Shown here piece after piece: positions 56 through 58,512 of a DNA stretch of 58,512 nucleotides; the stretch's first letter is position 1; the number at the start of each line of letters is the position of its first letter. Origin of the DNA: a virus (Duplodnaviria > Caudoviricetes); IMG/VR virus record IMGVR_UViG_3300044646_001108, positions 1 through 58,512 of that record. One strand, written 5' to 3'. A program made the position numbers and the translations under genes. Under the pieces are notes generated by a model. That model was given only the letters and a program-made list of their open reading frames with translations, searched no databases and was not told where the DNA came from.

Positions 56-462
56 ATGAATAGACCCGTTCCGTTGCAGTGCCAACAGCTGTCCGACGCC
101 TTGCGCTTTGGCACGTTGAACTTGTTTGGCGGCGCGTAGCTGTTGAGCTTTGTCCCAGTCCCGTTGCATGCCTTGCAAATTCGGATCATCCATTCAAGCA
201 ACGCCTGCTGCGCGATGATGGCTGCTCGATCCTGACCAATGCCGATCCTCTTCCTTCGACCGGAGCGGATCAATGTGTTCGACAGCAGTTCGATGCTGTT
301 CTGTAGTTCGCTGTTGTGACCTGCAGAGCGAAGGGCTTGCAGCGTAGAGCCAAGCCGTGAGGCGAACGCAAGCGCGGCAACGATCTCGATGTCGTGATGT
401 AGCTCGTCAGCCTTGAGGTTGCCGCTGTTGAGCGCTGAACCTATGCGCTCATGCGTCGCCAT
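1..462 (-). CDS. Q-like antitermination / zinc-finger protein, 5' part (continues across the junction to 58353)
   Basis: Not in the ORF track. ATG at 462 reads MATHERIGSALNSG...ICKACNGTG...SCWHCNGTG...; it runs off position 1 and continues in frame at the other end. It has two CxxCxGxG motifs and lies at the end of the nin-like region. Confidence 0.65.
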   Translation of the reverse strand, partial: MATHERIGSALNSGNLKADELHHDIEIVAALAFASRLGSTLQALRSAGHNSELQNSIELLSNTLIRSGRRKRIGIGQDRAAIIAQQALLEWMIRICKACNGTGTKLNSYAPPNKFNVPKRKASDSCWHCNGTGLFMPTWKWRVQMMKLGPDESK

Positions 463-790
463 CCGCACCCCCTACGATGCGGTCACGCATCATGTGGACG
501 AACTGGTCGAGCCTCAACATCACAAGCGGTCGCGTGTCCCCATCAACTCTCATCACCACCACTGGTATCTCGGTTGCCACGGACCCAGCTTCGCACTGCC
601 GCATGAAATTGATCACTGACAGCTGTTTGCGTCGCTTCACTTCGATCCGGAACGGCGGCACGTTGATGTCCTCTCCGCTGTCCCTTGCTTGTCCCAGTTT
701 TCTTTTTACCGCCACCCCTAACTGGTCGCTGAGGTAGGTTGCGATCTCCCTTTCCGTCGAGGCTCCTCGATCTCGCTGTAGTTTGCCCAT
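449..790 (-). CDS. Holliday junction resolvase-like PD-(D/E)XK endonuclease
   Basis: MGKLQRDRGASTERE...ARDSGEDI...RIEVKRR is an Hjc-type E...D...EVK pattern. Start refined to ATG 790. Confidence 0.65.
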   Translation of the reverse strand: MGKLQRDRGASTEREIATYLSDQLGVAVKRKLGQARDSGEDINVPPFRIEVKRRKQLSVINFMRQCEAGSVATEIPVVVMRVDGDTRPLVMLRLDQFVHMMRDRIVGGADGDA

Positions 791-935
791 CACTCTTCCT
801 TTTCTTCTGATAACAGCTGTTGCACACCCGTGTTCGCCTGCCAACAGACAAGACGTAGGTGAGCTTTGATCCTTGGGTGGGCGACGGCTTCCCACACATC
901 GCGCACGTAAACCTCTGCAGATACGGTGAGTTCAT
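543..935 (-). CDS. Small zinc-ribbon protein (C-terminal extent uncertain)
   Basis: CAMC...CNSC in the first 45 aa. ATG overlaps the upstream stop (ATGA). Confidence 0.4.
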   Translation of the reverse strand: MNSPYLQRFTCAMCGKPSPTQGSKLTYVLSVGRRTRVCNSCYQKKRKSDGQTTARSRSLDGKGDRNLPQRPVRGGGKKKTGTSKGQRRGHQRAAVPDRSEATQTAVSDQFHAAVRSWVRGNRDTSGGDES

Positions 936-1231
936 CGAACACTGAGCCTCCCGTCTTCAATGAGCCACGCGATGGTGTCTCGGTGGGCTTCTTCCCAGGC
1001 GCGGCGCTTCTCTTCCAGGCTCCAGTTCTTGCCCTGGTCGATTTCCATGTGGCACTTGTTGCAGACCGCAGCGACTCGGTAGTCGTGAGCCTTGATGCCC
1101 TTGCCCTTGCCGTCTCTTAGCTGATTGCTGTGGGCGGGGACGATGTTGGTCCCGTCGCCGTGGCACCTGCAGACAAAGCAGAACGGCGCGTCGTGCAAGT
1201 GATCAAGAAGCTTGCGGCTGCGCCAGTTCAT
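932..1231 (-). CDS. NinG/DUF968-like HNH-type zinc nuclease
   Basis: MNWRSRKLL...CFVC...AHSNQLRDGKGKGIKAHD...CNKCH. Start refined to 1231. Confidence 0.65.
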   Translation of the reverse strand: MNWRSRKLLDHLHDAPFCFVCRCHGDGTNIVPAHSNQLRDGKGKGIKAHDYRVAAVCNKCHMEIDQGKNWSLEEKRRAWEEAHRDTIAWLIEDGRLSVR

Positions 1232-1683
1232 AGGCTTGGGGAGACCGCAGCGCGGTGAGCGTTGAACGGAGCGAGGATCAAGCGTCTGAACCCATCTGCA
1301 GCAGCGGGGTCTTTGTCCAGTAGCGATCGACTGCTGATGCCAAGCATCGAGCAGATGTAGTTGCGAGCAGATGGCTCGTCGCAGATTGAGTCGAAGCTCC
1401 TGGCGCTTGCCCAGTTGTAGAACTCCGGGTCTCGGCAAAGCAGGAACGCCTGCTGCGACAGCGTCTTCGGATGTTCAACAGCCTGCTCGTCGTCGCCAAT
1501 CTGAACAAGCACCGCCATGAACCTCTGCCCCGCTCGCTTACCCTGGCGGATGGTGAAGTCTCTGAACGGGTGTGCTTCGCCCTCGTCGTCAAGCAAGAAG
1601 GTCACTGTCCTGCCGCGAGTGGATGACTCCGCCCACTGCAGCAGCATGACCTCGCCTTGGAATGCAATCTTTTCTGCGTCCAC
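1228..1683 (-). CDS. Hypothetical phage protein
   Basis: GTG start with GAGGA RBS, coupled to neighbouring genes. Confidence 0.6.
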   Translation of the reverse strand: MDAEKIAFQGEVMLLQWAESSTRGRTVTFLLDDEGEAHPFRDFTIRQGKRAGQRFMAVLVQIGDDEQAVEHPKTLSQQAFLLCRDPEFYNWASARSFDSICDEPSARNYICSMLGISSRSLLDKDPAAADGFRRLILAPFNAHRAAVSPSL

Positions 1684-1686
1684 TCC

Positions 1687-1992
1687 TCACTCCTTGTAGC
1701 GCATCAGTTGCCGGTACTTCTCGGCTTTGGTTGTTGGGCGCTTCGACTTAACAGCTGTTCGCTGTTGTTGCTTAGCGTTCGGTATTGTTTCTGGGCAATC
1801 TTTTGCGGGCACGGGCACACCAGGAGGGCTCGGCTCGCCCCATTCGTTCCCGTCGACGTTCAAGTACGTGATCTTGCTTCCTGGGAACTGGTCCATCAGC
1901 GAGCGGATGTCCTTGAACAGCTGGTCAACATGCGGCTTTTCTTTGCGGACCGCAGCGAAATAATCTTTGTCAGCCTGTGTGAACTTCATCAT
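1687..1992 (-). CDS. Hypothetical phage protein
   Basis: MMKFTQADKDYF...; GAGGAG RBS before 1992. Confidence 0.55.
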   Translation of the reverse strand: MMKFTQADKDYFAAVRKEKPHVDQLFKDIRSLMDQFPGSKITYLNVDGNEWGEPSPPGVPVPAKDCPETIPNAKQQQRTAVKSKRPTTKAEKYRQLMRYKE

Positions 1993-2000
1993 TCGACTCC

Positions 2001-2252
2001 TCACCCTTCCAATCCAACTACGTGGCATGAGTGGTGAAGCGCTGTCTCTCTCGACTCGCCGCGCTTCAAGACTACGTGTCTGGTGCCGCTCGGCGTGACG
2101 TGTTCGCGCCTGATGAACTCGTACACCTCGCCTGTCCGCAGCAGCGTGAACAGCTGTCCTGGTTGCATGTTCCTGACCTTCTTGCGAGCAGGGCACCTGC
2201 GCCCCTGGTAGCAGTTGCCGTGGCATGGAGGACAGGTCTGCTCGACGCTCAC
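2001..2252 (-). CDS. Hypothetical protein (Cys-rich N-terminus)
   Basis: Start overlaps the helicase stop; CPPCHGNCYQGRRCP. Confidence 0.45.
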   Translation of the reverse strand: MSVEQTCPPCHGNCYQGRRCPARKKVRNMQPGQLFTLLRTGEVYEFIRREHVTPSGTRHVVLKRGESRETALHHSCHVVGLEG

Positions 2253-3280
2253 GACAGCTGTTCCTCGACCAGGATTCCTGTTTCCTTCGCGACCAGACCT
2301 GGCGGAACGTATCTCGGGACCTCGAATCCGTGCGGTCTGCCCTGAACCTGACGCTCATGGAAGCTGTTGCCTTCGCTGTGATACCAAAGCCGGACAGTTG
2401 CCTCCTCGCCGCCGTCTCTGTTCTTGACGACGATGACCTGGGCATCACTCCATGCCTTCGCGTCATCGAGCAAAGGCTTGCCGTCCTTCATGCGCCGCTC
2501 GTTCTCAGCCTTCGCGCCCTCCTCCTTGACCACGCGCTCCTTCATCTTGTTGCGGTAGACCAGGACGACGTTGTCAACGCGGTCAGTGATGGCGCCAGTG
2601 CCCTTGATGTCGTACTTGCCTGGAATCTTTTCCTCAGACTCAAGCTTGCGAATGTGGTGGACAACGTGAATGTGAATCTCATGCGCCCTCGCCATCTCGC
2701 AGAGCTTGAAGACAAAATCCTTCTGGCTGTTGTAGTCGTCTTCGCCCGAGACGCAGCACATGAGGTTGTCGATGAAGAAGTGGTGGCACTTGTTCTCAAG
2801 CGCGGCGTACTTGACGATGCCCTGCACGTCAGACATCGAGGCGGTGCCCCTGACGTCCGCATACCAGAGCTTGTCTGTTGCCCAGTGGATGAAGTCCTTC
2901 GCGTACTGGGGTGAGGGCAAGCCCCCAGCAGCCTGAAGAATCATGCGGCTGTTCAGTGCTTCGGGCAGCATCTCGAAAGACGCAACGCCGCAGCGGTATC
3001 CCTGCTGCATGAAGCCAAGCTCAACCTGACTGATGATCAGTGACTTGCCGTGCCCATTCGCACCAGCCCAGAGGGTGACCTCTCCAGGCTTGAACTGCAG
3101 ATTCAGGTTTCCCCAGGGCAGCTTGGCAAAGACGCTTGAGTTGTCTCCATACATCCGCTGCAGCGTCTCTTCCACGAAGTCGGATGGCTTGCGCATCGTG
3201 TGCGCCTTGCTCTCCTGCTGCTTGAGGTAGGCACCGAAATCGAATGAGTCCGGGACCGTCTTAAACATACGCACTCTCAC
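2249..3280 (-). CDS. DnaB/T7 gp4-like replicative helicase
   Basis: Walker A GANGHGKS, SFEM, FFIDNL, HHIRK, IKGTGAITD, VKNRDG (SF4 motifs). Confidence 0.9.
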   Translation of the reverse strand: MRVRMFKTVPDSFDFGAYLKQQESKAHTMRKPSDFVEETLQRMYGDNSSVFAKLPWGNLNLQFKPGEVTLWAGANGHGKSLIISQVELGFMQQGYRCGVASFEMLPEALNSRMILQAAGGLPSPQYAKDFIHWATDKLWYADVRGTASMSDVQGIVKYAALENKCHHFFIDNLMCCVSGEDDYNSQKDFVFKLCEMARAHEIHIHVVHHIRKLESEEKIPGKYDIKGTGAITDRVDNVVLVYRNKMKERVVKEEGAKAENERRMKDGKPLLDDAKAWSDAQVIVVKNRDGGEEATVRLWYHSEGNSFHERQVQGRPHGFEVPRYVPPGLVAKETGILVEEQLS

Positions 3281-3707
3281 TCATCGATTCATGTATCCAC
3301 AAAGCCCACTCTTCATTCATCGACCGGAACCAGGGGAAGAATTCCAGGGTCCACACCCACTGATCGCGGGGTCGCTCGATGCTCTCCGGCGTCGGTAGGT
3401 AGCTCACGTCGTAGCCCTTTACCTCGTCGTAAAACCAAGCCTGCACTGGGTTGGCTTCCCCGCACAGCTGTTCGAACAGACCCATCTTCGCCTGTTCAGC
3501 GTTGCAGACAACGACGGTGGGCAGGCTCTTCAAAAACCGCCAGTCGTAATCCTTGCCTGGGATCGCCCTCACAAATGCGTATGGCTCCGTGTTCATGCGC
3601 ATGCGAGCGGGCAGCAAAGAGACGAAGACCATCTCCGGCGCCAGCTTGCGCATGCGCGACATGAGAATGGTCTCGCCACCGAATGGGAGCTTGGTCGGGT
3701 CGATCAT
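3261..3707 (-). CDS. Hypothetical protein in the replication module
   Basis: Overlap-coupled ORF between the replication protein and the helicase. Confidence 0.6.
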   Translation of the reverse strand: MIDPTKLPFGGETILMSRMRKLAPEMVFVSLLPARMRMNTEPYAFVRAIPGKDYDWRFLKSLPTVVVCNAEQAKMGLFEQLCGEANPVQAWFYDEVKGYDVSYLPTPESIERPRDQWVWTLEFFPWFRSMNEEWALWIHESMSESAYV

Positions 3708-4201: not shown

Positions 4202-4497
4202 TCCCCTTTGATAAGTTTTTACACCTAAAGGGTAGGCATAGTCCTACAGCACCCGGCGTGTTGTCCTACAGACATTGCTTCCTGGCTCCTGTATCCCCGT
4301 TGGTGGGCGGACTCAGCCTTAGACCGAGCCCTTTACATGCCATCCCCGCCGGAGCCGCATGACTCGCCAGCCTCTTCGCGGATGGGTGCTGGCTTCGCCG
4401 CCCATGTGTCCCCTGTTCCACCGCTGACAACCAGTAGGGGTATCGCCGCCCAGCCCTGTCGTCTCAATCACCAACCGGGCAGCATGTAGACAATCGC

Positions 4498-4809: not shown

Positions 4810-4829
4810 GGGTACGGTTCTCCTTGAAG

Positions 4830-4845
4830 AATACCTTTCGGTATT
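4830..4845. promoter_or_regulatory. Repressor operator AATACC-N4-GGTATT (copy 1)
   Basis: AATACCTTTCGGTATT just downstream of the leftward promoter. A degenerate copy lies at 4879-4894. Confidence 0.75.
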
Positions 4846-4852
4846 GCTCGCC

Positions 4853-4880
4853 ATCTTAGCATGTGTCACACATGAGTCAA
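4853..4880 (-). promoter_or_regulatory. Leftward sigma70 promoter (cro/replication operon)
   Basis: TTGACT-16-TAAGAT on the minus strand. The spacer contains the inverted repeat CATGTGT-C-ACACATG. Confidence 0.6.
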
Positions 4881-4972: not shown

Positions 4973-5629
4973 ATGGATGTGTTTGAGACCCGCCGCTTGA
5001 ACGTGGTGGCGTACATAGAGGAGAAGTTCGGGGGGAACAGGGCGGCTTTCTGCAGGGCAACCGGCAAGAACCCCAACCTGATCAACCTTGTGCTGACTGA
5101 CAACCCAGACTACAGAAGGAACATCGGGGAGAAGTTGGCGCGGGACATCGAAGTCAAGGCTTCGCTTCCTTCTGGCTGGCTAGACGCCCCTCGCGGAGTC
5201 GGCGAGCGCAAGACGGCAACGATCCCCATCACGTACTTGCCGTGGGCAATCCCAGACACGCCGCCACTCAAGCCGGACTCCTGCCTGACCGTACCAACAG
5301 ACGACCCCGCCCTGCGAATCCGAGTCTCCGGCACAGCAAACCTGATCATCGTCGTTCAGCAAGAGTCGAGCATGGCTCCGACGATCAAGGTCAACGACTT
5401 CATCTGGGTTGACCTGGGGGTCAAAGCCTTCAACAGCGACGGCGTTTACGTCGTCAGAAATTCAGACGGAACAACCGCCCTCAAGCGGATACAACAGCTG
5501 TCGCCAACCCAGTTCCAGCTGTCCGTTGACGACAAGACCTATGAGCCCCGCGCCGTCAACTCCAAGGCGATGACCAAGCTGCCTATCGTTGGGCGGGTCC
5601 TCTGCGTCTGGGGCTGCAGCATGCTCTGA
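4973..5629 (+). CDS. cI: CI-like repressor (HTH plus S24 peptidase)
   Basis: N-terminal HTH (RNIGEKLARDIE...GWLD); C-terminal SMAPTI...KRI LexA-type self-cleavage domain. Confidence 0.88.
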   Translation: MDVFETRRLNVVAYIEEKFGGNRAAFCRATGKNPNLINLVLTDNPDYRRNIGEKLARDIEVKASLPSGWLDAPRGVGERKTATIPITYLPWAIPDTPPLKPDSCLTVPTDDPALRIRVSGTANLIIVVQQESSMAPTIKVNDFIWVDLGVKAFNSDGVYVVRNSDGTTALKRIQQLSPTQFQLSVDDKTYEPRAVNSKAMTKLPIVGRVLCVWGCSML

Positions 5630-6533: not shown

Positions 6534-6965
6534 ATGACAACACGACTCAAGGTGCTGGAGATGGTCCAGCAAAACCACACGCCGATCACCAGCAAGCAAA
6601 TTGCCAAGGAGCTTGGCGTCCGAATTGAGACCGTCGCCTCTGCGCTGACCGATCTCTGGAAGACCAAGCAGGTGAAGCGTCGCTCCCATGACCGCATGTA
6701 CGAGCGGGGCGGGCGTTTCTACGAGTACGTCCACTCCGATAGCACCCTCCCAGGGTTTGAGTCCCTGGTCCTGCCCCTTGCAAAAAAGACCAGCAAGCGC
6801 AAGAAGCGGGCGGAGGGTGAGCGCCTTGCCGAGTTGCCACAAGCAACGACGCTGTCGCCCACCATCTCCTTCCCCGTTTCTGGCAAGACTGTGTCGTTCA
6901 CCATCCGGGAGGCGCGGCAGCTGCATGAACAGCTGTCGTCGTTGTTTGGGCATGTGGCGCATTAG
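6534..6965 (+). CDS. Winged-HTH DNA-binding protein
   Basis: ITSKQIAKELGVRIETVASALTDL; GAGGAGG RBS. Confidence 0.65.
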   Translation: MTTRLKVLEMVQQNHTPITSKQIAKELGVRIETVASALTDLWKTKQVKRRSHDRMYERGGRFYEYVHSDSTLPGFESLVLPLAKKTSKRKKRAEGERLAELPQATTLSPTISFPVSGKTVSFTIREARQLHEQLSSLFGHVAH

Positions 6966-7488: not shown

Positions 7489-8318
7489 CCAACAAATTGA
7501 ACCTTCCCAAGGCGGTTGTACTCGCCGTGCAAAACGACCCCTACACGCGGGGCAAGTCCGACATCAGCGTCACCCAGCTGATCTCCCCCCCATACCAGCG
7601 ACAGCTGCGAACAGCTGTTGAGCCACAAGAGGATGTTGCCGAGAGACTGTTCTCGCTGTACGGACAGATCGGTCACGGCATCCTTGAGCGCGCCGGTCTG
7701 AAGCTTGGATCAGATGTTGAGAACCGGCTCTTCGCCGAGATCAACGGTTGGACCGTATCAGGTCAATACGACCTCTTCGAGGACGGCGTCCTGATGGACT
7801 ACAAGTTCACCACATTCTGGTCGGTCAAGGGAGATGAGCCCAAGACAGAGTGGGTGCAGCAACTGAACCTGCTTCGCGTTCTTGCAATCCGCAATGGTAT
7901 GGATGTGAAAGCATTGAGGATCATTGCCCTGCTGCGCGACCACCAGATGACGCAAGCCAAGCGCGACCCCGAGTACCCGCAGCTTCCCATCGCAACGGTG
8001 GACATCCCGGTGTGGGACGTGTTCGACGCCGAGGAGTTCATGCTCGCCAGGGTCAAGGCTCACCAAGACGCAAACCCTCCGCCATGCACGGACGAGGAGC
8101 GCTGGATGCAGCCGTCTGTCTTTGCCCTAAAGAAGAACGGACGCAAGACAGCCATCAAGTTGTACGAGTCACGCGAAGAGGCTGAGTCAGCTGCATCGGC
8201 TGGCGGCAAGGACCACTTCGTCGAACACCGCCCTGGCGAGTTCAGGCGCTGCACCAGCTACTGCAACGTCGCGCATGGGTGCCCAGTTTTCCAGCAGTCA
8301 CAACAAACGGAGTTCTGA
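7482..8318 (+). CDS. Cas4/RecB-like PD-(D/E)XK recombination exonuclease
   Basis: ISVTQLI, SGQYD...DYK, QLN, C-terminal RCTSYCNVAHGC cysteines. Confidence 0.8.
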   Translation: MLTNKLNLPKAVVLAVQNDPYTRGKSDISVTQLISPPYQRQLRTAVEPQEDVAERLFSLYGQIGHGILERAGLKLGSDVENRLFAEINGWTVSGQYDLFEDGVLMDYKFTTFWSVKGDEPKTEWVQQLNLLRVLAIRNGMDVKALRIIALLRDHQMTQAKRDPEYPQLPIATVDIPVWDVFDAEEFMLARVKAHQDANPPPCTDEERWMQPSVFALKKNGRKTAIKLYESREEAESAASAGGKDHFVEHRPGEFRRCTSYCNVAHGCPVFQQSQQTEF

Positions 8319-8319: not shown

Positions 8320-8487
8320 ATGGACAAGGTAACCGAACAGCTGTTCACAGACATACGGCAGACCATTGAGCAACTCAAGCATGTGCCAAGTGGGGTCAGC
8401 CTCAAGACCTTGATGCACATCGAGGTGCTTGAGAAGCAAATCCAAACCCTTCGCGGTCGCATCTTGATGATGGAGGTGGAGCGATGA
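8320..8487 (+). CDS. Hypothetical protein
   Basis: Coupled short ORF MDKVTEQLF... Confidence 0.5.
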   Translation: MDKVTEQLFTDIRQTIEQLKHVPSGVSLKTLMHIEVLEKQIQTLRGRILMMEVER

Positions 8488-8726: not shown

Positions 8727-9034
8727 ACAGCTTCTCAGCCGTGGAGATTGAGGTGATCCGCTGGTCGGAGGCTCGCGGGATCATCGCCAACAGCGACAGC
8801 AAGACACAGCTGTTGAAGGCGTTCAGCGAGATGGGCGAGTTGGCTGACGCCGTCAATAAACGAGATATGCCTGGGATCAAAGATGGGATAGGCGATGTGC
8901 TGGTGTGCCTGATCAATGTCGCCGCGCTCGAAGACCTGGACCTTACTCGCTGCCTGATCCACGCCTACAACGAGATCAAGAATCGCAAGGGCTACCTCAA
9001 CAAAGAGGGGGTATTCATCAAGGAAGCGCCATGA
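8723..9034 (+). CDS. MazG-like nucleotide pyrophosphohydrolase
   Basis: QLLKAFSEMGELADA...DGIGDVLV...AYNEIKNRKG. Confidence 0.85.
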   Translation: MNSFSAVEIEVIRWSEARGIIANSDSKTQLLKAFSEMGELADAVNKRDMPGIKDGIGDVLVCLINVAALEDLDLTRCLIHAYNEIKNRKGYLNKEGVFIKEAP

Positions 9035-9742: not shown

Positions 9743-10771
9743 ATGATGAGCATTTACCTGCGCGGCAGCGTTTACTGGATAGAGATACGCAAACCCAACG
9801 GCGAGCGGATACGCGAAACGGCGGGGACGGGGGACAGGGGGACAGCGCAAGCTTTCCACGACCTGAGAGTCAAGCAGATTGAAGATGGCTTGATCAAGCC
9901 CCCGACCTGGGCGGACGCGATTCGACGCTGGATGGAGGAGCGTTCTGACAAGCGGTCATTGGACCGCGACGAGTCGATGGCTAGGTGGCTTGCGCCGCAC
10001 TGGGATCAACGGCTGTTCAACAGCATCACCGATGACGACGTCAAGAGGGTGGTGGAGTTGAAACGCAAGGAGACCAGCGCGAGCAACGCGAACCACTACC
10101 TGAAGTTCGTGAAATCGCTCTTTAACAGATCGGTGGACTGGGGATGGGTGGATTCTTCACCCGTCAAAGCAAAGCCCTTCTCCGCGCCAAAGACGCGGGT
10201 GAGGTTCCTTGCTGAGGATGAGCTTGTCCGATTGATGCGTGAGCTTCCTCATCACCTGCGGGTGATGGCGGAGTTCAGCGTGTTGACGGGTCTTCGGATG
10301 TCCAACGTGACTGGACTTCGGTGGGACCGGATTGACATGCAGCGCCGGGTTTTGTGGATTCCGTCGACCGACTACAAGTCGGGCAGGGACCACGGGATTC
10401 CGCTGGGGGATCGGGCGGCGCAGATTCTGGAAGGAGAGAAAGGGCAAAACGAGGAATGGGTGTTCACGTACAAGGGTTACCCCGTACAGAACACCAACAC
10501 GGCGGCTTGGCAGAAGGCGCTGCAGAGGGCTGGCATCCGGGACTTCCGGTGGCACGATCTTCGGCACACCTTTGCCAGCTACCACGCCATGAACGGCACC
10601 CCGCTGTTGACGCTCAAGGCATTGGGCGGATGGCAGACGCTGGAGATGGTCAACCGCTACGCCCACCTGTCAGCAGAGGGTGCGCGGCAGTACGCCAACA
10701 ACAGCGTACCCACAGCTGTGGGTGCGTGTGGGAGAACTGTGGGTATTGTGGGTCAACAAAACCCACAATAG
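9743..10771 (+). CDS. int: Tyrosine integrase
   Basis: TGLRMSN, HDLRH, LGGW and RYAHL catalytic motifs; adjacent to attP. Confidence 0.95.
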   Translation: MMSIYLRGSVYWIEIRKPNGERIRETAGTGDRGTAQAFHDLRVKQIEDGLIKPPTWADAIRRWMEERSDKRSLDRDESMARWLAPHWDQRLFNSITDDDVKRVVELKRKETSASNANHYLKFVKSLFNRSVDWGWVDSSPVKAKPFSAPKTRVRFLAEDELVRLMRELPHHLRVMAEFSVLTGLRMSNVTGLRWDRIDMQRRVLWIPSTDYKSGRDHGIPLGDRAAQILEGEKGQNEEWVFTYKGYPVQNTNTAAWQKALQRAGIRDFRWHDLRHTFASYHAMNGTPLLTLKALGGWQTLEMVNRYAHLSAEGARQYANNSVPTAVGACGRTVGIVGQQNPQ

Positions 10772-48529: not shown

Positions 48530-48979
48530 TTACATCAACTGGACCTCGGCGGACCTGCGTCTGACGAGACCCGGAAGAACTTTCCCACCCCCACGGGTCC
48601 AAAGCATCAGCTGCTCCTTCGCCCCGTCCCAATCCTTCGCGACGATCTTTCGCTTCAGGGTGGACGTCTGCAGCCTCCCGACGCCCAGGTTGTAGGCGAA
48701 GTCCACTATCGCTGCCAGACGACCCGGCTTTTCTTGCAGCAGATTTGGGCATTGACGGAGGACTCCAGGAAGGTATGTGTGGTTCAGTTCGAACAGCAAC
48801 AGCTGTTCAGCGCGCTCCTTGCTCATTGGCGGATGCGTGAGTTCGACCTTGTTGCCGTTCTCGTAGTACGTGCTGCCGTACCCAATGGTCGGCACACCGG
48901 CTGGGCATAGGTACGGCTTTGACCGGAACCCCTCAAACAACTTGCAGAGGTCGGCAGCGATCTGCACCGCCTCCTGCAT
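48530..48979 (-). CDS. Lysozyme (GH24 endolysin)
   Basis: FEG...YLCPAGVPTIGYG...AYNLG...GLVRRRSAE. Confidence 0.92.
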   Translation of the reverse strand: MQEAVQIAADLCKLFEGFRSKPYLCPAGVPTIGYGSTYYENGNKVELTHPPMSKERAEQLLLFELNHTYLPGVLRQCPNLLQEKPGRLAAIVDFAYNLGVGRLQTSTLKRKIVAKDWDGAKEQLMLWTRGGGKVLPGLVRRRSAEVQLM

Positions 48980-49747: not shown

Positions 49748-50030
49748 CCAACTCCTCCAATTTCTGCGCGCTTTAAGGCGGATATGCACAAAATTTTGCG
49801 AAAAACGAACATATACCCCCTCCCCAGGGGGTGTCTTGGTCCGCATGGGGCGCCAAAGTTATCGTCAGGCGATAAACCGGCTAACTTCGCTATAAAAAGG
49901 CGCCAAGTGCGTGTGAGGGTGGGTATGTGGTGGGTCCCAACCCCGCCGCCTCGCGCGCTCGCGGGTCCGCCGCGACTCCGCGCACGACAACGCGCGCGTT
50001 TACGCCCTGTCCGACAGCTGTTGCCGCTGT

Positions 50031-50708
50031 TCAGCCTGGAAGTAGAGGACCGGACTCAATGCCCGGTCGACTCCCCAGCACTGGCGCGGGGTTGCAGTCG
50101 ATTGTGGGCGGCTGACTGTGGGTAGAGCGGATGCCAATGTTGAAGATGACGTTCGTCTTGGCGGTGTCGCCCTGGTAATCGCCCCACTTCGTCGGCTTGA
50201 GCTTGCTTGCGACCCACTTGCGGGCGTCCACGCGCAGCCGTGCTGCCTGGATTTCCTCCATGCTGCCAGTGGCGGCTTCGTCGGCGATGTCGACGATCTC
50301 ATCAGCCAGGGAATCGGCGCGGTCGTCGTGTGCGCGCGCGTACCGCTCCCGGAAGTCCTTCCTTTCCCGTAACCACCGATAGACAGTGTCGAGCCCTCGA
50401 TGCTCCAGCCTGCAGTAGCTGCGCAGTGATCTCCCCTCTGCGATCCAGGCGCAGATGCGATCTGCCTCTTCGTCTGTGTATTCGCTTGGTCTGCCCATGA
50501 CAGCTGTTTGGGTGCTGTTCTCTCCCCCTACGCTTTGCACAGCTGTTGCCTGCTGTTGTGCCAGCTGTAGCTGCTCATGGGCGTTTTTCTCAGCCAGGGC
50601 GACTTCCTGCAGCGCCTGATCCCTTGCTGCGTCCTTTTGCTGGCGCTTCTTCTCTGCTGCCTTCTTCCTGGCAGCTTCGCGCTCTTCGCGCTCTTGCTCT
50701 TCGTTCAT
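50031..50708 (-). CDS. terS: Terminase small subunit (Sf6-like HTH)
   Basis: GRPSEYT...ICAWIAEGRSL...TVYRWL...ARLRVDARKWVASKLKP. Confidence 0.88.
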   Translation of the reverse strand: MNEEQEREEREAARKKAAEKKRQQKDAARDQALQEVALAEKNAHEQLQLAQQQATAVQSVGGENSTQTAVMGRPSEYTDEEADRICAWIAEGRSLRSYCRLEHRGLDTVYRWLRERKDFRERYARAHDDRADSLADEIVDIADEAATGSMEEIQAARLRVDARKWVASKLKPTKWGDYQGDTAKTNVIFNIGIRSTHSQPPTIDCNPAPVLGSRPGIESGPLLPG

Positions 50709-50932: not shown

Positions 50933-52062
50933 GCCTGTCCTATCGTGTACCTCTTGGTGAACGCCTTGATGCCGTCTGGCATCCCTCGGCGCTCAATGAG
51001 CGAGCCCCCTGGCAGAACCTGGGCGAGGTAGGCAAGCCCACGGCACCAGTTGCTCATTGCCTTCGTGTGCTGAGGGTCGCGCCTGATCCAGGTGTCGAAC
51101 TCCGTGTTCCACATGGTGTCGCTCTTGTCCGCCTGATACCAGCCGTCGTCCCAGGTGCTGTAGACCACTGAGCGCAGAACCCGCTCATGCACCCGACGTA
51201 TGGTTCGAAAGCTCGGGCGCTCCCAGTGGCGCACCATCTCCGGGTTTTGCCTGAGCCAGCGGCGGATTACGTGTGCCTGCTTGCACAGCATCTCAACAGC
51301 TGTCGGCGACCAATAGAACGGCTCGGTCTCCACGTTGCTATGGTCCGCGTTCCACTCTCGGATCGTTGTGATGTTCACCCCACCGTCTGGGAACACCATC
51401 CAGAACTGCCCGTCTTCGATCCTTGTCTTGGGCTTGTCGATGCCAACGATCAGCGCTACTCGCTTCCCGCGCTCAAAGGTCCTCATCATCTCTGCCCAGT
51501 GCCAGTAGTCGTACCGGAACAGCTGCCCTGGGCTTAGGTGTTCGTTTCGCCGCAGCGCCCAGGTTGGGTCGTCCATCTCAGCAATGGAGTCCAGGACATG
51601 CTTGCTGGCATCCAGAACCGTGATCTTCGTTTTCGGCGCCCTGGTGGCAAGCTCTTGCAGCCTGGGCACCGCCTGCAGCGCATGCTCGGCGGCGAAGTTC
51701 CAAGGCGCAATCACCGAGCGATCAAGCACCGTCCAGCGCTGGGTTGCCTCGGTGAGGTGGTTGCAGACAACTTCGTCCAGGTGGATGCTGTTTCGAAGGA
51801 ACGTCTCCAGGACGTTGTGAGTGTCTGCGCCCCCGCTGTAGCTGAGGATCAGGTAGTCGTAGCTCTCTCGAAGCTGGCGGGCGCGCTTTGCGTACAGGTC
51901 ATCCAGGCTCTGCTCTGGCTCGACCGTCCAGTCGTAGGCGCCGAACACCTCATCGTGGAACCACCAGCCCACCTGCTGGTTGGTTGCCGCCCCGTAGAGC
52001 AGCGCGTCGACCTTTGAACTGAACCGGGCGTTGCCGACAACGTAGAAGCCTAAGGCGCTCAC
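50929..52062 (-). CDS. PP-loop (adenine nucleotide alpha-hydrolase) protein
   Basis: LSYSGGADT; GIDKP; paralog of 33966-35018. Confidence 0.75.
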   Translation of the reverse strand: MSALGFYVVGNARFSSKVDALLYGAATNQQVGWWFHDEVFGAYDWTVEPEQSLDDLYAKRARQLRESYDYLILSYSGGADTHNVLETFLRNSIHLDEVVCNHLTEATQRWTVLDRSVIAPWNFAAEHALQAVPRLQELATRAPKTKITVLDASKHVLDSIAEMDDPTWALRRNEHLSPGQLFRYDYWHWAEMMRTFERGKRVALIVGIDKPKTRIEDGQFWMVFPDGGVNITTIREWNADHSNVETEPFYWSPTAVEMLCKQAHVIRRWLRQNPEMVRHWERPSFRTIRRVHERVLRSVVYSTWDDGWYQADKSDTMWNTEFDTWIRRDPQHTKAMSNWCRGLAYLAQVLPGGSLIERRGMPDGIKAFTKRYTIGQA

Positions 52063-53374: not shown

Positions 53375-53523
53375 ACGCCGCCCAGACGATCACCCGCACT
53401 TTGCGTCGCCGCGAACGATACCGTTTGCTGCGCTTCCTTGTCGGACAGCTGTTTTCTGTCCTGCAGTTTTTTGCCGCCGCAGCGCTGATCTACGCGCTGC
53501 TGGTTCTTGGTCTCGCCCTTTGA
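53371..53523 (+). CDS. Small membrane protein
   Basis: GGAGG RBS; basic N-terminus plus TM helix. Confidence 0.5.
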   Translation: MNAAQTITRTLRRRERYRLLRFLVGQLFSVLQFFAAAALIYALLVLGLAL

Positions 53524-54781: not shown

Positions 54782-56887
54782 ATGGCAAATCAAATCATTG
54801 GCGCTCGCGTCAAGGCTGCAGCGCTTGTCCACGCCCAGAAGCAACTAGGCAACCTGGGCTTCCGGTTCAAATCCGGCGCTGGCTCCGCAACCTTCCACGG
54901 CGAGACTGCCTACGCCGCCTGGGAGGCTGGCGCTGGCGACTGGGTTGGCGCTTTCCGCATCAACTACCCAGAGATGCCCGACAACGCCCTGGTCAGCCGC
55001 CGCGAGGCGGACCTGATCAGCGCGTACACGCTGCATGAGATCGGACACGTCGCCTACACCGAGGCGAAGGTCACCAGCGGCAAGGCTGCGCTCATCCACT
55101 ACCTGTACAACGGGATCGAGGATGGGCGCATCGAACATGCGGTCATTGCCAGCGGCAAGGCTCGCGGTGCGCGGTCGATGTTCAAGCGCCTGATGTCGAA
55201 GTTCACTAGCAAGATCGTTGCTGGCGGCGACTTCAACCCGACGTCAATCAACAGCGCCCCATTCGCCTTGGCTTTGGTCTCACGCGCCGCTCTGGGCGAT
55301 GGCAACGGGTTCGCGAAACAGCTGTTGTCTCGCATCCCGGAGCCGTACCAGTCGCTCTACGCAGCCGCTGCGGACGGCATCAAGTCTGCCCCGCTCGACC
55401 GCTCCGGCTCTGCCGTCTCGCTCAGTCTGGCTCAGCAGTTCCTGGATGGCTGGCTGCGCATCAACCCGGACGCCCTCAGCCGCCCAGCCGCTCCCCCTCC
55501 CCTGGGCGAGCCCCAGGATGGCGAGGGCATCTCGATACCGGGTGGCGAGGGCGATCAGGACGGCGACCCCGCCGAGTCCGCTCTGCCGAGTCAACTGGAG
55601 GAGGAACAGCCCGACAGAGACGGTCCCAGCGGTCACTGGTCGCCGCCTGATCGCGACCTTTTTGACGCCGACAACTACGGCGACGGCGACGGCGACGGGT
55701 TCGACGACAACGATGAACAGCTGTCTCCCGAGGAGCAAGCCGCAGCTGAGGCTGACGCCAAGGAGCGCGACGAACTTGCGGAGCAGATGGCTGGCGCTGC
55801 CGAGGCGGCACCAGAGGCTGACGACAGCATTCTCAGCGCCCTGCCGGAGTCCGACTCGGACGACGACGAAGGCGGTGACAGTGTTGGCGAGCCGTTCCAA
55901 GCCCTGGATCAGCAGGACAACTTCGATGAGGGCAAGGTCATCAAGCCCGAGCCCGAGGTCGACGATGTCTTCAAGTCGATTCGCGAACGCACCCGCGATG
56001 CGGTCACGCTCCGGTCTGTCCCGGTTGCCAACCGCAGCGAGATGCGCAAGTGGAGCAAGCTGCAGGACTTGACCGACAAGACCCGCAAGTCGCACCTCAA
56101 GAAGCTCAACCGCCACGCGATGCCTGCTCTCAAGGCTCAGCTGTACCGGGTCCTCAAGGCTCCGGAGCGCTGCGGCTGGGACGGCGGCGCGATGGGCGGT
56201 CGCTTCGACGGCAAGCGCGCACCGCGCATGCTGGCTGGCAGCGAACAAGTCTTCAAGCGTCGCTGGCTTGCTGAGGGCATCGACACCGCCGTGTCGGTTG
56301 TCATCGATCTGTCCGGCTCGATGCAGGGCAGCACCATCGACTCTGCAGTCGACCTCGCCTGGACCATCGCCCAGGCTTGCGAAGGCGCTCGCGCTGACGT
56401 CGAGGTTGTCGGGTTCCAGAACGCAAGGTATCCGGTCTACACGGGCGGCTACGACATGCGAGGCGATTGGCACTCGGCTCAAGGCAACAGCGACTGCACC
56501 TTGGTGGTCGCCAAGCGGTTCGCTGACCGCTGCGAGTCAGTCGCCCATCACTTCCAAGTGATGAAACGACTGCCTGACATGGGCACCCCTGACTATGAGG
56601 CATGCAAGACGGTTGTCGAACAGCTGTCCGAGATGCCGCACAAGCGCAAGGTTGTGATCATGGTCACCGACGGCTGCGGAGACGTTGCCGACATGCGCCG
56701 CCTAGGAGAGGGAGCCTGGAAGCTGTACGGCGTAGACGTGATTGGCTTCGGCATCCACGTCAGCGCTCAGCAGTTCGCCCGCGCCTACCCGGTCGGCTCT
56801 CCAGTCAGCCTGGACTCGCTCCACAAGACGGGTCTCAAGGGTGTCGTCAAGCAGCTGGAGTCGCGCGATCAGCGCCGCGTCATCTAA
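54782..56887 (+). CDS. CobT-like protein: HExxH N-domain, acidic linker, VWA domain
   Basis: LHEIGHVAYT...NGIEDGRIE; DLSGSM MIDAS; GTP; VTDG. Confidence 0.88.
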   Translation: MANQIIGARVKAAALVHAQKQLGNLGFRFKSGAGSATFHGETAYAAWEAGAGDWVGAFRINYPEMPDNALVSRREADLISAYTLHEIGHVAYTEAKVTSGKAALIHYLYNGIEDGRIEHAVIASGKARGARSMFKRLMSKFTSKIVAGGDFNPTSINSAPFALALVSRAALGDGNGFAKQLLSRIPEPYQSLYAAAADGIKSAPLDRSGSAVSLSLAQQFLDGWLRINPDALSRPAAPPPLGEPQDGEGISIPGGEGDQDGDPAESALPSQLEEEQPDRDGPSGHWSPPDRDLFDADNYGDGDGDGFDDNDEQLSPEEQAAAEADAKERDELAEQMAGAAEAAPEADDSILSALPESDSDDDEGGDSVGEPFQALDQQDNFDEGKVIKPEPEVDDVFKSIRERTRDAVTLRSVPVANRSEMRKWSKLQDLTDKTRKSHLKKLNRHAMPALKAQLYRVLKAPERCGWDGGAMGGRFDGKRAPRMLAGSEQVFKRRWLAEGIDTAVSVVIDLSGSMQGSTIDSAVDLAWTIAQACEGARADVEVVGFQNARYPVYTGGYDMRGDWHSAQGNSDCTLVVAKRFADRCESVAHHFQVMKRLPDMGTPDYEACKTVVEQLSEMPHKRKVVIMVTDGCGDVADMRRLGEGAWKLYGVDVIGFGIHVSAQQFARAYPVGSPVSLDSLHKTGLKGVVKQLESRDQRRVI

Positions 56888-56937: not shown

Positions 56938-57204
56938 ATGACCATCCAGTCACTCAACGACCCCGCCGTTCGCGCCGACCTTTCGCGCGACTCGGACCTG
57001 CAGATGCTGTCATTCATCCACGACGAACGTGGTGGACCGCGATCTGCTTACGCCTGGGCAGTGGGGCGCATCCCGCAACCCAACCCGGTCAACCCCTACA
57101 TGGGCGACCAGTTCTTCACCGCCGACCTGGACACCCAGAAAGTGGAGGACTTCATCATCGCCTTCTACACCGCATACAACGCCCGCTTTGGGCTCACCTA
57201 TTGA
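56938..57204 (+). CDS. Hypothetical protein
   Basis: AAGGAG RBS before ATG 56938. Confidence 0.6.
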   Translation: MTIQSLNDPAVRADLSRDSDLQMLSFIHDERGGPRSAYAWAVGRIPQPNPVNPYMGDQFFTADLDTQKVEDFIIAFYTAYNARFGLTY

Positions 57205-57213
57205 GGAGCCAGC

Positions 57214-57714
57214 ATGAAGATCGATGAACTTGCCCTGGTCATTGCCGAGCGCGCTCACCGCGAGGCTGTCAGGGCTGACGGTGTCACGCCGTACATTGCC
57301 CACCCGATGGTGGTCGCCGCCGTTGTCCGCGCTTCAGGCGGAAACGAAACAGCTGTTGCTGCAGCCCTGCTGCATGACGTAATCGAGGACACCCCGATGA
57401 AGCCTTCGGAACTCATCGAGCTTGTAGGCGAGGAGGTCGCAGACCTTGTGGTCGAGTTGACCTTCCCAGCCAACATGCCAGACCGCAGGCGGCGGATGAT
57501 CGAGAGAGTCCCTTCGATGAGCCCAGTGGCTAGGCTGATCAAGCTTGCCGACATTTACTGCAACCTCTCAGACCTGCCCAGGTCTGGCTGGGATGCGGAC
57601 AAGGTGGCTCGGTATTACCGGCACCTGCTGGCTATGCGCGTGGCTTTGGCTGGAACCCACCCCGTGCTTGAACGGGCGTTCGACGATGTCGCCGAGAAGT
57701 TCCCTGTCGCGTAG
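57214..57714 (+). CDS. Mesh1/SpoT-type HD hydrolase (small alarmone hydrolase-like)
   Basis: PYIAHP, AALLHDVIEDT, VVELT, IKLADIYCN. Confidence 0.88.
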   Translation: MKIDELALVIAERAHREAVRADGVTPYIAHPMVVAAVVRASGGNETAVAAALLHDVIEDTPMKPSELIELVGEEVADLVVELTFPANMPDRRRRMIERVPSMSPVARLIKLADIYCNLSDLPRSGWDADKVARYYRHLLAMRVALAGTHPVLERAFDDVAEKFPVA

Positions 57715-57728
57715 TCCTGCTTGATATT

Positions 57729-57752
57729 GCCCTCGGGGAATTTCCTGGGGGC
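57729..57752. terminator. Terminator between convergent operons
   Basis: GCCCTCGGGG-AATT-TCCTGGGGGC, then TGTTT. Confidence 0.55.
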
Positions 57753-57843
57753 TGTTTCACTATAAGCAGGACCTACGGAATTGGATTTGTTGGATAGTCC
57801 TTCTGCCGATTATGCACATTTACAACCCCCGGCGCAACAGCTG

Positions 57844-58353
57844 TTATGGCTGTTGCTCTGGGGGTTTTTCCGTATCTACGTTTGCGGGCATCCGGAGCAA
57901 TTGCGCTCTGCCCGCAGCGATCTCGCTCTCAACGAATGCGACCATGTCCTCAAGCTGTTTGACGGTGCTGTTGTCCAGCTGTTCGTCGTGAACAGCGAGC
58001 GCTGTTGCGATGGCGTTCATCTCAGCGCCGCTGCACCCATATCGCTTGTGCTTGGCGGCTCTCTCAACCATCGCCTCGACTGCAAGCTGGGCTTGTCTGA
58101 TCTCGGGCATGAACTCAGCGCCGAGACCGTGCCGCGCATAGGCTTCAGAGATGTTGAAGCAGGCAATGAGTATGTCAACCTCATGCTTGCCCGCTCTGCC
58201 CTTCTTGATTGAATCAAGCGCCGCGTAGTGCTTGATCTTCAGAACCGTAAGCGCGTCGCTGAACTGGTGCGCGATAGGCTGCACCCCCTGGATCACTCTC
58301 TCCCAGGCGTTCAGTGTGATGGGCTTCGGTCTGTACTTGCTTCGCTTGCGCAC
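57844..58353 (-). CDS. Conserved hypothetical phage protein
   Basis: MRKRSKYRPKP...HDEQL; its start abuts the stop of the Q-like gene. Confidence 0.65.
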   Translation of the reverse strand: MRKRSKYRPKPITLNAWERVIQGVQPIAHQFSDALTVLKIKHYAALDSIKKGRAGKHEVDILIACFNISEAYARHGLGAEFMPEIRQAQLAVEAMVERAAKHKRYGCSGAEMNAIATALAVHDEQLDNSTVKQLEDMVAFVESEIAAGRAQLLRMPANVDTEKPPEQQP

Positions 58354-58512
58354 TACTCCAGCAACTCCAACAGCTGTTGAGTTACCTTGCGGCGCGCGGC
58401 AGCGTATGCATCATCCGCTATCTCTTTTGCGAACTCGATGCGTTTCTCCCACCAGTCCTTTGATTCATCGGGTCCAAGCTTCATCATCTGCGCCCGCCAT
58501 TTCCATGTTGGC
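58353..58512 (-). CDS. Q-like protein, 3' part
   Basis: ...KLGPDESKDWWEKRIEFAKEIADDAYAAARRKVTQQLLELLE*, in frame with 462 to 1. Confidence 0.65.
   Translation of the reverse strand, partial: PTWKWRAQMMKLGPDESKDWWEKRIEFAKEIADDAYAAARRKVTQQLLELLE
58458..58512. repeat. Terminal direct repeat, right copy
   Basis: Matches 1-55 at 52/55 positions. Confidence 0.95.

Follow-up and report, generated by a model that had tools for sequence, protein, structure and literature searches.

The octamer in the phage genome

The stretch of DNA analysed here, hereafter the window, is the whole of IMG/VR record IMGVR_UViG_3300044646_001108 (58,512 bp, rated complete, also labelled G000), which by its predicted gene content is a complete temperate podovirus-type phage. 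The element in question is the eight-base palindrome ACAGCTGT. A pattern search of the window finds exactly 43 copies in 58,512 bp (Table 1). An earlier note on this DNA had listed 43 starts; every coordinate is exact and there are no additional copies. The two perfect 16-base palindromes that it reported are also present and read ACCCACAGCTGTGGGT at 10708–10723 and AGCAACAGCTGTTGCT at 38824–38839. ACAGCTGT is the top 8-mer of the window, AACAGCTGTT is the top 10-mer (n = 18) and CAGCTG is the top 6-mer (n = 98 compared with about 30 expected), with 43 of the CAGCTG copies lying inside the octamer. Dinucleotide-preserving shuffles (n = 100) contain a mean of 1.24 copies of ACAGCTGT and a maximum of 5, and none of the 100 attains 43, which corresponds to an excess of about 35-fold. 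The control word, consisting of the letters of ACAGCTGT in reversed order, occurs once.

The window is 95.6% coding, and 40 of the 43 sites are inside open reading frames (ORFs) with 3 in the 4.4% that is non-coding. The octamer is read as Thr-Ala-Val (T-A-V) 20 times, as x-Gln-Leu-x (x-Q-L-x) 18 times and as Ser-Cys (S-C) 3 times, with 3 copies outside ORFs, and the S-C frame that requires a cysteine is the rare one. Synonymous-codon shuffles within genes (n = 1000) yield 3.9 copies on average (standard deviation 1.8, maximum 11) compared with the 41 counted in ORFs, an excess of about 10-fold, and permutation of whole codons averages 0.88 copies, with at most 7, against the same 41. The dinucleotide, synonymous-codon and codon-permutation shuffles rule out chance or codon usage as the cause of the excess. 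Twenty of the 25 Thr-Ala-Val tripeptides in the window are encoded as ACAGCTGT, despite ACA being 18% of the Thr codons and GCT 27% of the Ala codons, and the 25 tripeptides are themselves 2.6 times the 9.5 expected from amino-acid frequencies. The tripeptide surplus and its minority-codon spelling therefore indicate that the motif shapes the protein sequence and not vice versa. The earlier note had argued for DNA-level selection from the use of all three frames, and had proposed an amino-acid- and codon-preserving shuffle as the check. The enrichment did not vanish in that shuffle (41 vs 3.9), and the argument stands on the synonymous-shuffle excess, the several frames and the skewed amino-acid usage. 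These results show that the ACAGCTGT signal resides in the DNA and not in the protein.

Table 1. Copies of ACAGCTGT in the window, followed by assigned genes. Site coordinates are from the pattern search (strand given as "."), frames are from ORF calls and conservation is from protein-guided and nucleotide alignments. Genes were assigned by a PHROGs scan of 53 ORFs and Pfam scans of 50 + 6 ORFs.
Feature	Position	Strand	Context
ACAGCTGT site	85..92	.	ORF 1-468(-), S-C; octamer also at aligned place in G008
ACAGCTGT site	619..626	.	ORF 449-895(-), RusA/PDDEXK-like, Q-L
ACAGCTGT site	813..820	.	ORF 449-895(-), T-A-V
ACAGCTGT site	1751..1758	.	ORF 1687-2466(-), T-A-V
ACAGCTGT site	2150..2157	.	ORF 1687-2466(-), T-A-V
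ACAGCTGT site	2254..2261	.	3' end of helicase ORF 2249-3280(-), Q-L; also S-C in overlapping ORF call
ACAGCTGT site	3464..3471	.	ORF 3261-3707(-), Q-L
ACAGCTGT site	5494..5501	.	CI-like repressor ORF 4973-5629(+), Q-L
ACAGCTGT site	6929..6936	.	ORF 6688-7488(+), S-C
ACAGCTGT site	7611..7618	.	exonuclease ORF 7482-8318(+), T-A-V; G005 has ACAACTGT
ACAGCTGT site	8337..8344	.	ORF 8275-8487(+), Q-L
ACAGCTGT site	8806..8813	.	MazG-like ORF 8600-9034(+), Q-L
ACAGCTGT site	10712..10719	.	3' end of integrase 9671-10771(+); centre of 16-mer 10708-10723; kept in G005
ACAGCTGT site	11113..11120	.	giant polyvalent virion protein ORF 10949-20410(-), Q-L
ACAGCTGT site	11373..11380	.	ORF 10949-20410(-), T-A-V
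ACAGCTGT site	12534..12541	.	ORF 10949-20410(-), T-A-V
ACAGCTGT site	13783..13790	.	ORF 10949-20410(-), Q-L; kept in G005 (protein-guided alignment)
ACAGCTGT site	18339..18346	.	ORF 10949-20410(-), T-A-V; kept in G006
ACAGCTGT site	18504..18511	.	ORF 10949-20410(-), T-A-V; kept in G006
ACAGCTGT site	18514..18521	.	ORF 10949-20410(-), Q-L; 10 bp from site 18504
ACAGCTGT site	19342..19349	.	ORF 10949-20410(-), Q-L
ACAGCTGT site	20136..20143	.	ORF 10949-20410(-), T-A-V
ACAGCTGT site	22807..22814	.	virion structural ORF 21873-23159(-), T-A-V; kept in G005, V-A-A in G006/G007
ACAGCTGT site	26515..26522	.	ORF 25817-26638(-), Q-L
ACAGCTGT site	29838..29845	.	internal virion protein ORF 29798-32401(-), T-A-V
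ACAGCTGT site	31467..31474	.	ORF 29798-32401(-), T-A-V
ACAGCTGT site	31602..31609	.	ORF 29798-32401(-), T-A-V
ACAGCTGT site	35698..35705	.	ORF 35015-35791(-), Q-L
ACAGCTGT site	38768..38775	.	ORF 37591-39987(-), T-A-V
ACAGCTGT site	38828..38835	.	ORF 37591-39987(-), T-A-V; centre of 16-mer 38824-38839
ACAGCTGT site	47455..47462	.	TerL ORF 46949-48394(-), Q-L; sole site of TerL-portal-capsid block; kept in 9/12 aligned relatives, ACAGTTGT in G009
ACAGCTGT site	48799..48806	.	endolysin ORF 48530-48979(-), Q-L
ACAGCTGT site	50014..50021	.	non-coding, between TerS ORF and ORF 49484-49846; kept in G004, L056, G005, L027
ACAGCTGT site	50500..50507	.	Sf6-like TerS ORF 50031-50738(-), T-A-V; G005 has ACAGTTGT
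ACAGCTGT site	50539..50546	.	TerS ORF 50031-50738(-), T-A-V; kept in G004, G005, L056
ACAGCTGT site	51296..51303	.	ORF 50929-52062(-), T-A-V
ACAGCTGT site	53445..53452	.	ORF 53179-53523(+), Q-L
ACAGCTGT site	55318..55325	.	CobT/VWA-like ORF 54782-56887(+), Q-L
ACAGCTGT site	55717..55724	.	ORF 54782-56887(+), Q-L
ACAGCTGT site	56620..56627	.	ORF 54782-56887(+), Q-L; kept in G005, L027; ACAGTTGT/ACAACTGT in G009-G011
ACAGCTGT site	57349..57356	.	HD-domain ORF 57214-57714(+), T-A-V
ACAGCTGT site	57837..57844	.	between convergent ORFs 57214-57714(+) and 57844-58353(-)
ACAGCTGT site	58370..58377	.	non-coding, directly upstream of ORF 57844-58353(-)
DnaB-like helicase	2249-3280	-	PHROGs/Pfam
Replication initiator	3704-4201		PHROGs/Pfam
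CI-like S24 repressor	4973-5629	+	PHROGs/Pfam
Integrase	9671-10771	+	PHROGs/Pfam
Polyvalent virion protein, 3153 residues	10949-20410	-	MuF_C residues 2120-2217, LPD38 residues 2849-3014
Portal	44999-46939		PHROGs/Pfam
Large terminase (TerL)	46949-48394	-	PHROGs/Pfam
Sf6-like small terminase (TerS)	50031-50738	-	PHROGs/Pfam

The word and its variants in related phages

Relatives were collected by searching IMG/VR with the portal, which gave the 80 best loci among 589 confirmed relatives, and 19 related records were fetched whole or to their contig limits. G416 was found independently by scanning IMG/VR for two ACAGCTGT copies at most 30 bases apart. Three motif classes are distinguished: A is ACAGCTGT/RACAGCTGTY, B is ACAGTTGT/ACAACTGT and C is RACAGAY. 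ACAGCTGT ranks first among the 8-mers in G000, G004, G005, G006, G007 and G008, which span a guanine-plus-cytosine (GC) content of 52% to 64%. It is also the top 8-mer in G416 (40 copies in 64.8 kb; GC 64%, portal 57% identical) and G816 (8 copies in 30.9 kb), giving 8 related phage records overall (GC 52–64%). Its density is about 0.3–0.7 per kb, and the counts exceed the means of synonymous shuffles in G005 (24 vs 3.5), G416 (34 vs 2.0) and G008 (10 vs 0.9). A portal tree of 53 rows, made by a quick search with Shimodaira–Hasegawa-like approximate likelihood-ratio (SH-aLRT) support only, places nine class-A rows in one clade and places G416 and L059/G816 outside the clade of class A and its sister. 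On this topology the motif probably predates class A.

The same octamer is found at aligned places by protein-guided alignment for 5/5 sites in G004, 6/25 in G005, 2/13 in G006, 0/13 in G007 and 1/9 in G008. Nucleotide alignments give the sites kept relative to an 8-base background as 6/6 in G004 (0.69), 5/5 in L056 (0.477), 2/2 in L024 (0.107), 5/11 in G005 (0.117) and 3/6 in L027 (0.14); sites and ancestry are common to these comparisons, which do not count as independent tests. The earlier note had looked to related phages for enrichment and for conserved sites. ACAGCTGT is enriched there, and by nucleotide alignment its sites are kept more often than background windows in near and middle relatives but not in G006 (0/8) or G008 (1/6). 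The picture suggested by these alignments is that density is maintained while individual sites are slowly replaced.

The flanks extend the palindrome. Over 97 sites from four class-A records, position −1 is R in 89/97 (66 A, 23 G), position +8 is Y in 93/97 (65 T, 28 C), and the next base outward from the RACAGCTGTY flanks is C or G in about three-quarters of the 97. RACAGCTGTY fits 37/43 window sites and SRACAGCTGTYS fits 21/43. One-mismatch neighbours of ACAGCTGT, pooled from 5 records, have observed/expected ratios of 1.10 for positions 1/8, 0.74 for 2/7, 1.01 for 3/6 and 1.32 for 4/5. The flanks of CAGCTG are bimodal, with A...T on both sides of 40 copies, on one side of 9 and on neither side of 37 in G416; the corresponding numbers in the window are 43, 27 and 28. 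The lack of a one-mismatch surplus and the bimodal flanks indicate that the unit is the entire palindrome, with sharp symmetric recognition. The half-site is unconvincing as the selected unit in the window, where RACAGC outside palindromes is only 1.5 times shuffle and an unrelated control word deviates equally.

Gaps between sites are Poisson-like, with a coefficient of variation (CV) of 1.15 in the window and 1.01 in both G005 and G416, and regular spacing of ACAGCTGT is rejected on these values (CV 1.0–1.15). Per kb, the early region holds 1.21 copies, the giant gene 0.95, the tail region 0.40, the head region 0.13 and the two segments at the right-hand side 1.05 and 1.31. The absence of sites from the head genes between 38836 and 47454, pointed out in the earlier note, is confirmed. 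This 8627-bp stretch is borderline when taken alone (P = 0.053, uniform placement), and the TerL-portal-capsid block is depleted in 4/4 records tested (3 sites vs 19.3 expected, Poisson P = 6e-6). Binned by identity to G005, the density is 0.91 per kb below 60%, 0.73 in the middle bin and 0.32 at ≥80%. Per-gene density is not significantly correlated with protein conservation (Spearman rho 0.02), and protein constraint is not claimed as the cause of the depletion. Blocks 23800–27300 and 32400–37000, which lack a homologue in any compared relative and have a lower third-position GC content (GC3 0.52–0.62), hold just 2 motif copies in about 8 kb. These blocks are probably recent acquisitions that form a tail-fibre or host-range region.

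In sister clade B, which comprises G009, G010, G011 and loci related to them, the over-represented word is ACAACTGT/ACAGTTGT, the motif with one central transition. The variant retains 7/8 motif positions and loses the restriction-type core. It occurs in ORFs 23 times in G009 (26 in total) and 13 times in G011, compared with 2.7 and 2.8 in synonymous shuffles, and window sites 47455 and 56620 align with it in G009–G011. G009, the 54,761-base record behind L047, has 0 AGCT vs 178 expected and 0 CAGCTG vs 16.7 expected. The 26 variants in this AGCT-free genome equal the 26 palindromes of G005, which supports selection on the word itself. Clade C (G012–G014, L005, L087, L095–L098) has 0–3 copies of CAGCTG and is enriched for RACAGAY, with 107 observed vs 18 in shuffles for G013 and 74 vs 15.5 for G014. 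RACAGAY occurs about 1–3 times per kb in both orientations, and is seen only in lineages without CAGCTG. All three classes have the same 5' flank of S and then R, almost never T, before ACAG. Relative to gene direction, the asymmetric variants divide 13/10 in G009 and 40/31, 51/54 and 38/36 in class C. The equal use of both orientations indicates that duplex DNA is read, not RNA or a Chi-like oriented signal, and an RNA-level motif is ruled out on the same grounds. Replacement of the palindrome by the nearest core-free word where CAGCTG/AGCT is evidently restricted suggests that the word matters and not its methylation.

Purging of CAGCTG to 0–3 copies is found in G009, G012, G013 and G014, with 0 in G012 and G014. 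The hexamer is absent or nearly so in many family members (loci L005–L098; G012, G013, G014, G814, G815), including family loci of 12–22 kb with GC >50% in which the count is 0. The 55-kb genome of G009 avoids an AluI-type tetranucleotide completely. From the loss of CAGCTG in many family members, PvuII-type enzymes seem common among the hosts.

Other words lead in further records. The top word is GACAAAC in G813 (37 vs 8.7), AGGGTCTG in G814 (12 vs 1.2) and TACCGGTA in G812 (16 vs 0.4, at least partly clustered as GGATACCGGTATCC), and CTCGAG is at about 2 times expectation in both G015 and G812. L013, a 14.2-kb contig of a Sericytochromatia metagenome-assembled genome, has 13 copies of the 16-base palindrome TAATCCCATGGGATTA near a distantly related portal gene. 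Three of the 13 have C for the central T, and this iterated palindrome is possibly the host's.

Sampled bacteria, attachment site and phage genes

The bacterial samples comprised 401 Burkholderiales genomes, 401 genomes of one family of that order and 331 genomes from across Pseudomonadota, giving 1,133 rows in which some genomes are repeated. The tallies take in the unpublished genomes G041, G220, G309, G394 and G561, and no claim depends on any single one. The maximum number of AACAGCTGTT copies per genome is 16, 16 and 36 (in 4.6 Mb) in the three samples, respectively, and the bacterial counts are generally near the reversed control. This density is at most about 10 per Mb compared with 308 per Mb in the phage (18 in 58.5 kb), which is about 30 times denser than the richest bacterium. 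The 45 nucleotides at 10817–10861, adjoining the integrase gene, are identical to the 3' end of tRNA-Asp(GTC) and form the putative core of the phage attachment site (attP). Five genomes, four with an exact match at the bacterial attachment site (attB), contain 25–59 copies of ACAGCTGT each. Among the exact-attB genomes G125 is the exception (59 vs 11), and its density is about 32-fold lower than that of the phage; in the others the octamer is at or below the reversed control. AGCTGTT, the half-site, does not exceed its control in 4/5 such genomes and is only 1.14 times control in G125. Enrichment in Burkholderiales, which the earlier note had proposed to look for, did not materialize at phage density for AACAGCTGTT in any of the 1,133 rows or for ACAGCTGT in the five genomes counted. 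Within the genomes sampled, these counts place the motif with the phage clade and not with the hosts.

The attP core is present with ≤2 mismatches in 358/401 sampled Burkholderiales. The host assignment to this order in the earlier note is compatible with the core, an exact 45-nucleotide tRNA-Asp match in at least 14 of these genomes. It is weakened by near-identical fragments in other phyla, with the core fragment found within 2–3 mismatches in Marinobacter, Pleionea and Hallella genomes. The fragment is not order-specific, and a Burkholderiales host is thus only tentative. No lysogen was found: TerL had no match in 5 genomes, the portal was detected in 4/401 genomes with a best identity of 43%, a portal scan of genome contigs gave ≤56% identity, and an exact 30-nucleotide attP-junction pattern had no match in metagenome contigs. 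The region 10700–10948 around the core resembles attP, with a GC-rich hairpin and then an A run at about 10790–10816. About 8 CCCACA/TGTGGG repeats within 10708–10935 look like integrase arm-type sites, and the motif copy at 10712 arises at the head-to-head junction of two of them.

Genes in the window other than those in Table 1 encode a RusA/PDDEXK-like nuclease, an HNH nuclease, an exonuclease, an endolysin, a CobS/CobT-like AAA+/VWA pair and an HD-domain protein. The polyvalent protein at 10949–20410 has about 2,800 residues without a family match and is of a type thought to be injected with the DNA. The earlier note had recognized no methyltransferase in the genome, and neither a methyltransferase nor a Vsr-like family appears in the PHROGs (53 ORFs) or Pfam (56 ORFs) scans. 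Among cultured phages, the portal protein is closest to those of Rhizobium phage RHph_TM3_14A (36%) and of the HMO-2011/CRP/HTVC103P group (25–29%). By this comparison the phage family is a distant relative of Rhizobium phages and of the HMO-2011 type (portal identity ≤36%), and portal and TerL DNA had no match among cultured phages. All 24 of the listed sequencing runs holding the phage are lake-water metagenomes.

The divergent CI/cro region (4811–4972), between the CI-like gene and ORF 4498–4896, has 0 copies of ACAGCTGT. It carries the palindrome ATACC-N4-GGTAT at 4830–4844 and 4879–4893, and a third inverted repeat of similar kind is located 3' of the CI gene at 5728–5751; these are likely immunity operators. 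The CI/cro region thus lacks ACAGCTGT and has a palindrome of its own, which indicates that the immunity operator is a different sequence from the motif.

Interpretation of the iterated palindrome

We tentatively favour, as a possible account, that ACAGCTGT is a highly iterated palindrome of a phage lineage that is selected as a set of recognition sites and is not a transcriptional operator; its function is inferred from the patterns above. The RACAGCTGTY copies would be kept by selection as putative recognition sites of a sequence-specific duplex-DNA factor. The factor would probably be dimeric, either DNA-binding or DNA-modifying, and would act along the whole phage chromosome; the motif would then tag self-DNA in the service of replication, packaging, condensation or protection. 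The factor may be encoded by the phage, as a small and fast-evolving protein, or may be a protein that is conserved in the hosts. A more doubtful extension, made by analogy with bacterial uptake sequences and Chi, is that the family carries 'dialects' of the tag (RACAGCTGTY, ACAGTTGT, RACAGAY) that a phage or host machine may read to tell phage from host DNA and that may be reshaped when restriction targets the core. New beyond the earlier note are the assignment of the motif to a phage clade rather than to a host, the variants in sister clades and the distinction from the immunity operator.

Several observations weigh against selection for a reader protein. No reader, methyltransferase or convincing DNA-binding candidate was found among the phage ORFs in PHROGs and Pfam, and tblastn and profile searches from the window's genes yielded no gene that is present in all motif-A records and missing elsewhere. 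The class-A-only genes 4319–4474, 6688–7488 and 53179–53523 and the G000 TerS have no detectable homologue in G416. ORF 20413–21873 (486 residues, virion module) is the only gene that is common to class A (G005, G006, G007) and G416 (E = 4.6e-7) and was not found in clades B and C; none of its 10 homologues in a large protein collection is named. Its AlphaFold model (mean predicted local distance difference test score, pLDDT, 62.8) is mostly long helices with no Foldseek match in the PDB at E ≤ 0.001. The surplus in site conservation is gone in distant class-A records (G006 0/8, G008 1/6), and a continuing mutational, repair or conversion drive would give a similar turnover. A small motif-rich host clade may lie outside the sampled genomes, and the records analysed in full number just 19. 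Two of the reader candidates suggested in the earlier note gained no support: ORF 6534–6965 has only sub-threshold helix-turn-helix matches (E 1.7e-4 or weaker, under the Pfam cut-offs) and no homologue in relatives, and ORF 57844–58353 has no class-A homologue. The helicase family was discarded as a correlate by its presence in G813 and G814, which are without motif A, B or C, and ORF 57029–57217 was discarded as a co-occurring gene that is low-complexity and probably a spurious frame.

[quoted passage not shown] Common features are an 8-bp palindrome with a Type II restriction-type core, a surplus in the tens-fold range, intragenic copies in several frames on the order of one per kb, and substituted variants in related lineages. 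Portions of Xu 2018 give a 15- to 300-fold over-representation of HIP1 and periodic spacing at 10–90 kb. The phage octamer is over-represented about 35-fold by dinucleotide shuffles and about 10-fold by synonymous shuffles (6- to 17-fold in relatives), and it lies within and between ORFs with no single frame or peptide (20/18/3 plus 3 non-coding). The phage genome is 58.5 kb against the 10–90 kb period of HIP1, and its short-range gaps are Poisson-like (CV 1.0–1.15). According to passages of Elhai 2015 (PMC4390886), genomes with HIPs also encode a methyltransferase that acts on the inner sequence, and one-base deviations from HIPs concentrate at the first and last positions. In contrast, the carrier here is a phage clade and not a cellular phylum, the sampled hosts are without the motif, no cognate methyltransferase was found in the phage genome scans, and the one-off variants lack an outer-position bias. 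Parts of PMC4390886, PMC5861425 and PMC13756078 present the function of HIP1 as still debated between a repair by-product, nucleoid structure and an uptake signal.

A repair by-product is an unlikely explanation for the phage word. In the model of Elhai 2015, or in biased gene conversion or very-short-patch-like repair, a host methyltransferase at CAGCTG/AGCT would bias mismatch repair towards the motif, and copies would build up with no benefit to the phage. The core is one of the classic Type II sites, and the CAGCTG purging shows that such enzymes act on the phage family. The lack of a co-occurring phage gene, the turnover of site positions and the density of about one per 1.4–2.2 kb, which is the order predicted for HIPs in passages of PMC4390886, are also consistent with a methylation-linked ratchet. 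However, the predicted surplus of one-off words at the outer positions is not seen (1.1 outer; 0.74–1.32 inner) and one-sided CAGCTG intermediates are few. The host should be enriched too, but none of the 1,133 genome rows is, and no methyltransferase or Vsr-like gene was detected in the phage scans. G009 still has 26 variant sites without AGCT, a pattern that is hard to reconcile with a mechanism requiring AGCT or CAGCTG methylation.

Mirroring of the host is improbable. The phage would have adopted, during long prophage residence, a word that is hyper-abundant in the host chromosome, such as an uptake sequence, a Chi-like site or a HIP, in keeping with its temperate gene set (integrase, CI-like repressor and attP with a tRNA-Asp core). 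P1 and Chi are reportedly a case of a host word over-represented in a phage. Phages with over-represented host words are described in portions of Bobay 2013, and the searched genomes are a sample of species that may not include the true host. The bacterial counts argue the other way: AACAGCTGTT reaches at most about 10 per Mb in bacteria vs 308 per Mb in the phage, the 8-mer is at or below control in the exact-attB genomes except G125, and the half-site is not enriched. The motif is also common to records that range from 52 to 64% GC. Chi and DNA uptake sequences do resemble the phage word as short exact words scattered in coding DNA with 'dialects' in related lineages, and a role in marking DNA as self for a duplex-scanning machine is plausible for both by analogy only. 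They differ in being abundant in the host chromosome, where the phage word is at or below control in the sampled bacteria, and Chi is strand-oriented whereas the phage word is palindromic and its variants are unoriented.

Two proposals that tie the word to DNA handling are more doubtful still. The T7 and T4 primases recognize the trinucleotides GTC and GTT. The copies would be preferred primase start sites if the template 5'-CTGTY-3', which ends in GTY, directed a pppACAG primer, with the palindrome serving both strands. The half-site S-R-ACAG common to classes A, B and C, the high density of RACAGAY in both orientations in class C and a mean class-A spacing of 1.4–2 kb, which resembles the Okazaki-fragment scale, are compatible with this very improbable role. 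Against it, the phage has a DnaB-like helicase and no primase domain in the PHROGs/Pfam scans, a 5-base word is already frequent by chance, priming needs no palindromic coupling, and the half-site outside palindromes is 1.5 times shuffle with a control word deviating as much. Slightly less credible again are distributed pac-like packaging signals read by the small terminase. P22 and Sf6 have pac inside the TerS gene, and two phage copies 39 bp apart lie within the Sf6-like TerS gene (at about nucleotides 190–240) with one just downstream, all among the better conserved sites. However, G416 has the motif at equal density without a detectable homologue of the window TerS (tblastn E < 1e-3, profile E < 0.01), headful packaging requires one pac per concatemer and the sites are randomly spread (CV about 1).

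A stoperator-like array, in which many immunity-repressor sites silence the prophage, is highly improbable: as in the stoperators of Cluster A mycobacteriophages, dozens of identical short sites span a temperate genome and the lineage-specific variants resemble stoperator/repressor co-evolution, but those stoperators are asymmetric, oriented, mostly intergenic and identical in sequence to the repressor operator, whereas the phage motif is palindromic and 93% intragenic (40/43 sites in ORFs, no intergenic surplus), its variants are not oriented to transcription, and the CI/cro region has 0 copies and a different palindrome, ATACC-N4-GGTAT.

Restriction-site avoidance in phages is said to have been treated by Rusinov in 2018 (PMC6286503). 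The purging of CAGCTG and AGCT in sister lineages (G009, G012, G014) resembles it, whereas class-A phages do the reverse, with G000 carrying 98 CAGCTG vs about 30 expected. A literature search whose coverage excluded subscription journals yielded no paper that treats ACAGCTGT as a motif of bacteria or phages and none that deals with iterated palindromes in phage genomes. The word occurs in 1,036 papers, and among the matches listed it belongs to primers or to E-box contexts of eukaryotes.

Cyanobacterial chromosomes are known for hyper-abundant palindromes, whose function is disputed after thirty years. A HIP-type signal that is carried by a phage clade and not mirrored in the roughly 1,100 Pseudomonadota genomes sampled reduces the range of explanations and makes a host-wide repair by-product less likely. 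The phage genome is small enough for recoding and testing, and the sister clades are a natural experiment. If selection for recognition sites is the correct account, this would be the first phage-autonomous highly iterated palindrome and a tractable 58-kb model for what HIP-type sequences do. If a reader protein exists, it would represent a new way for phages to mark or manage their own DNA.

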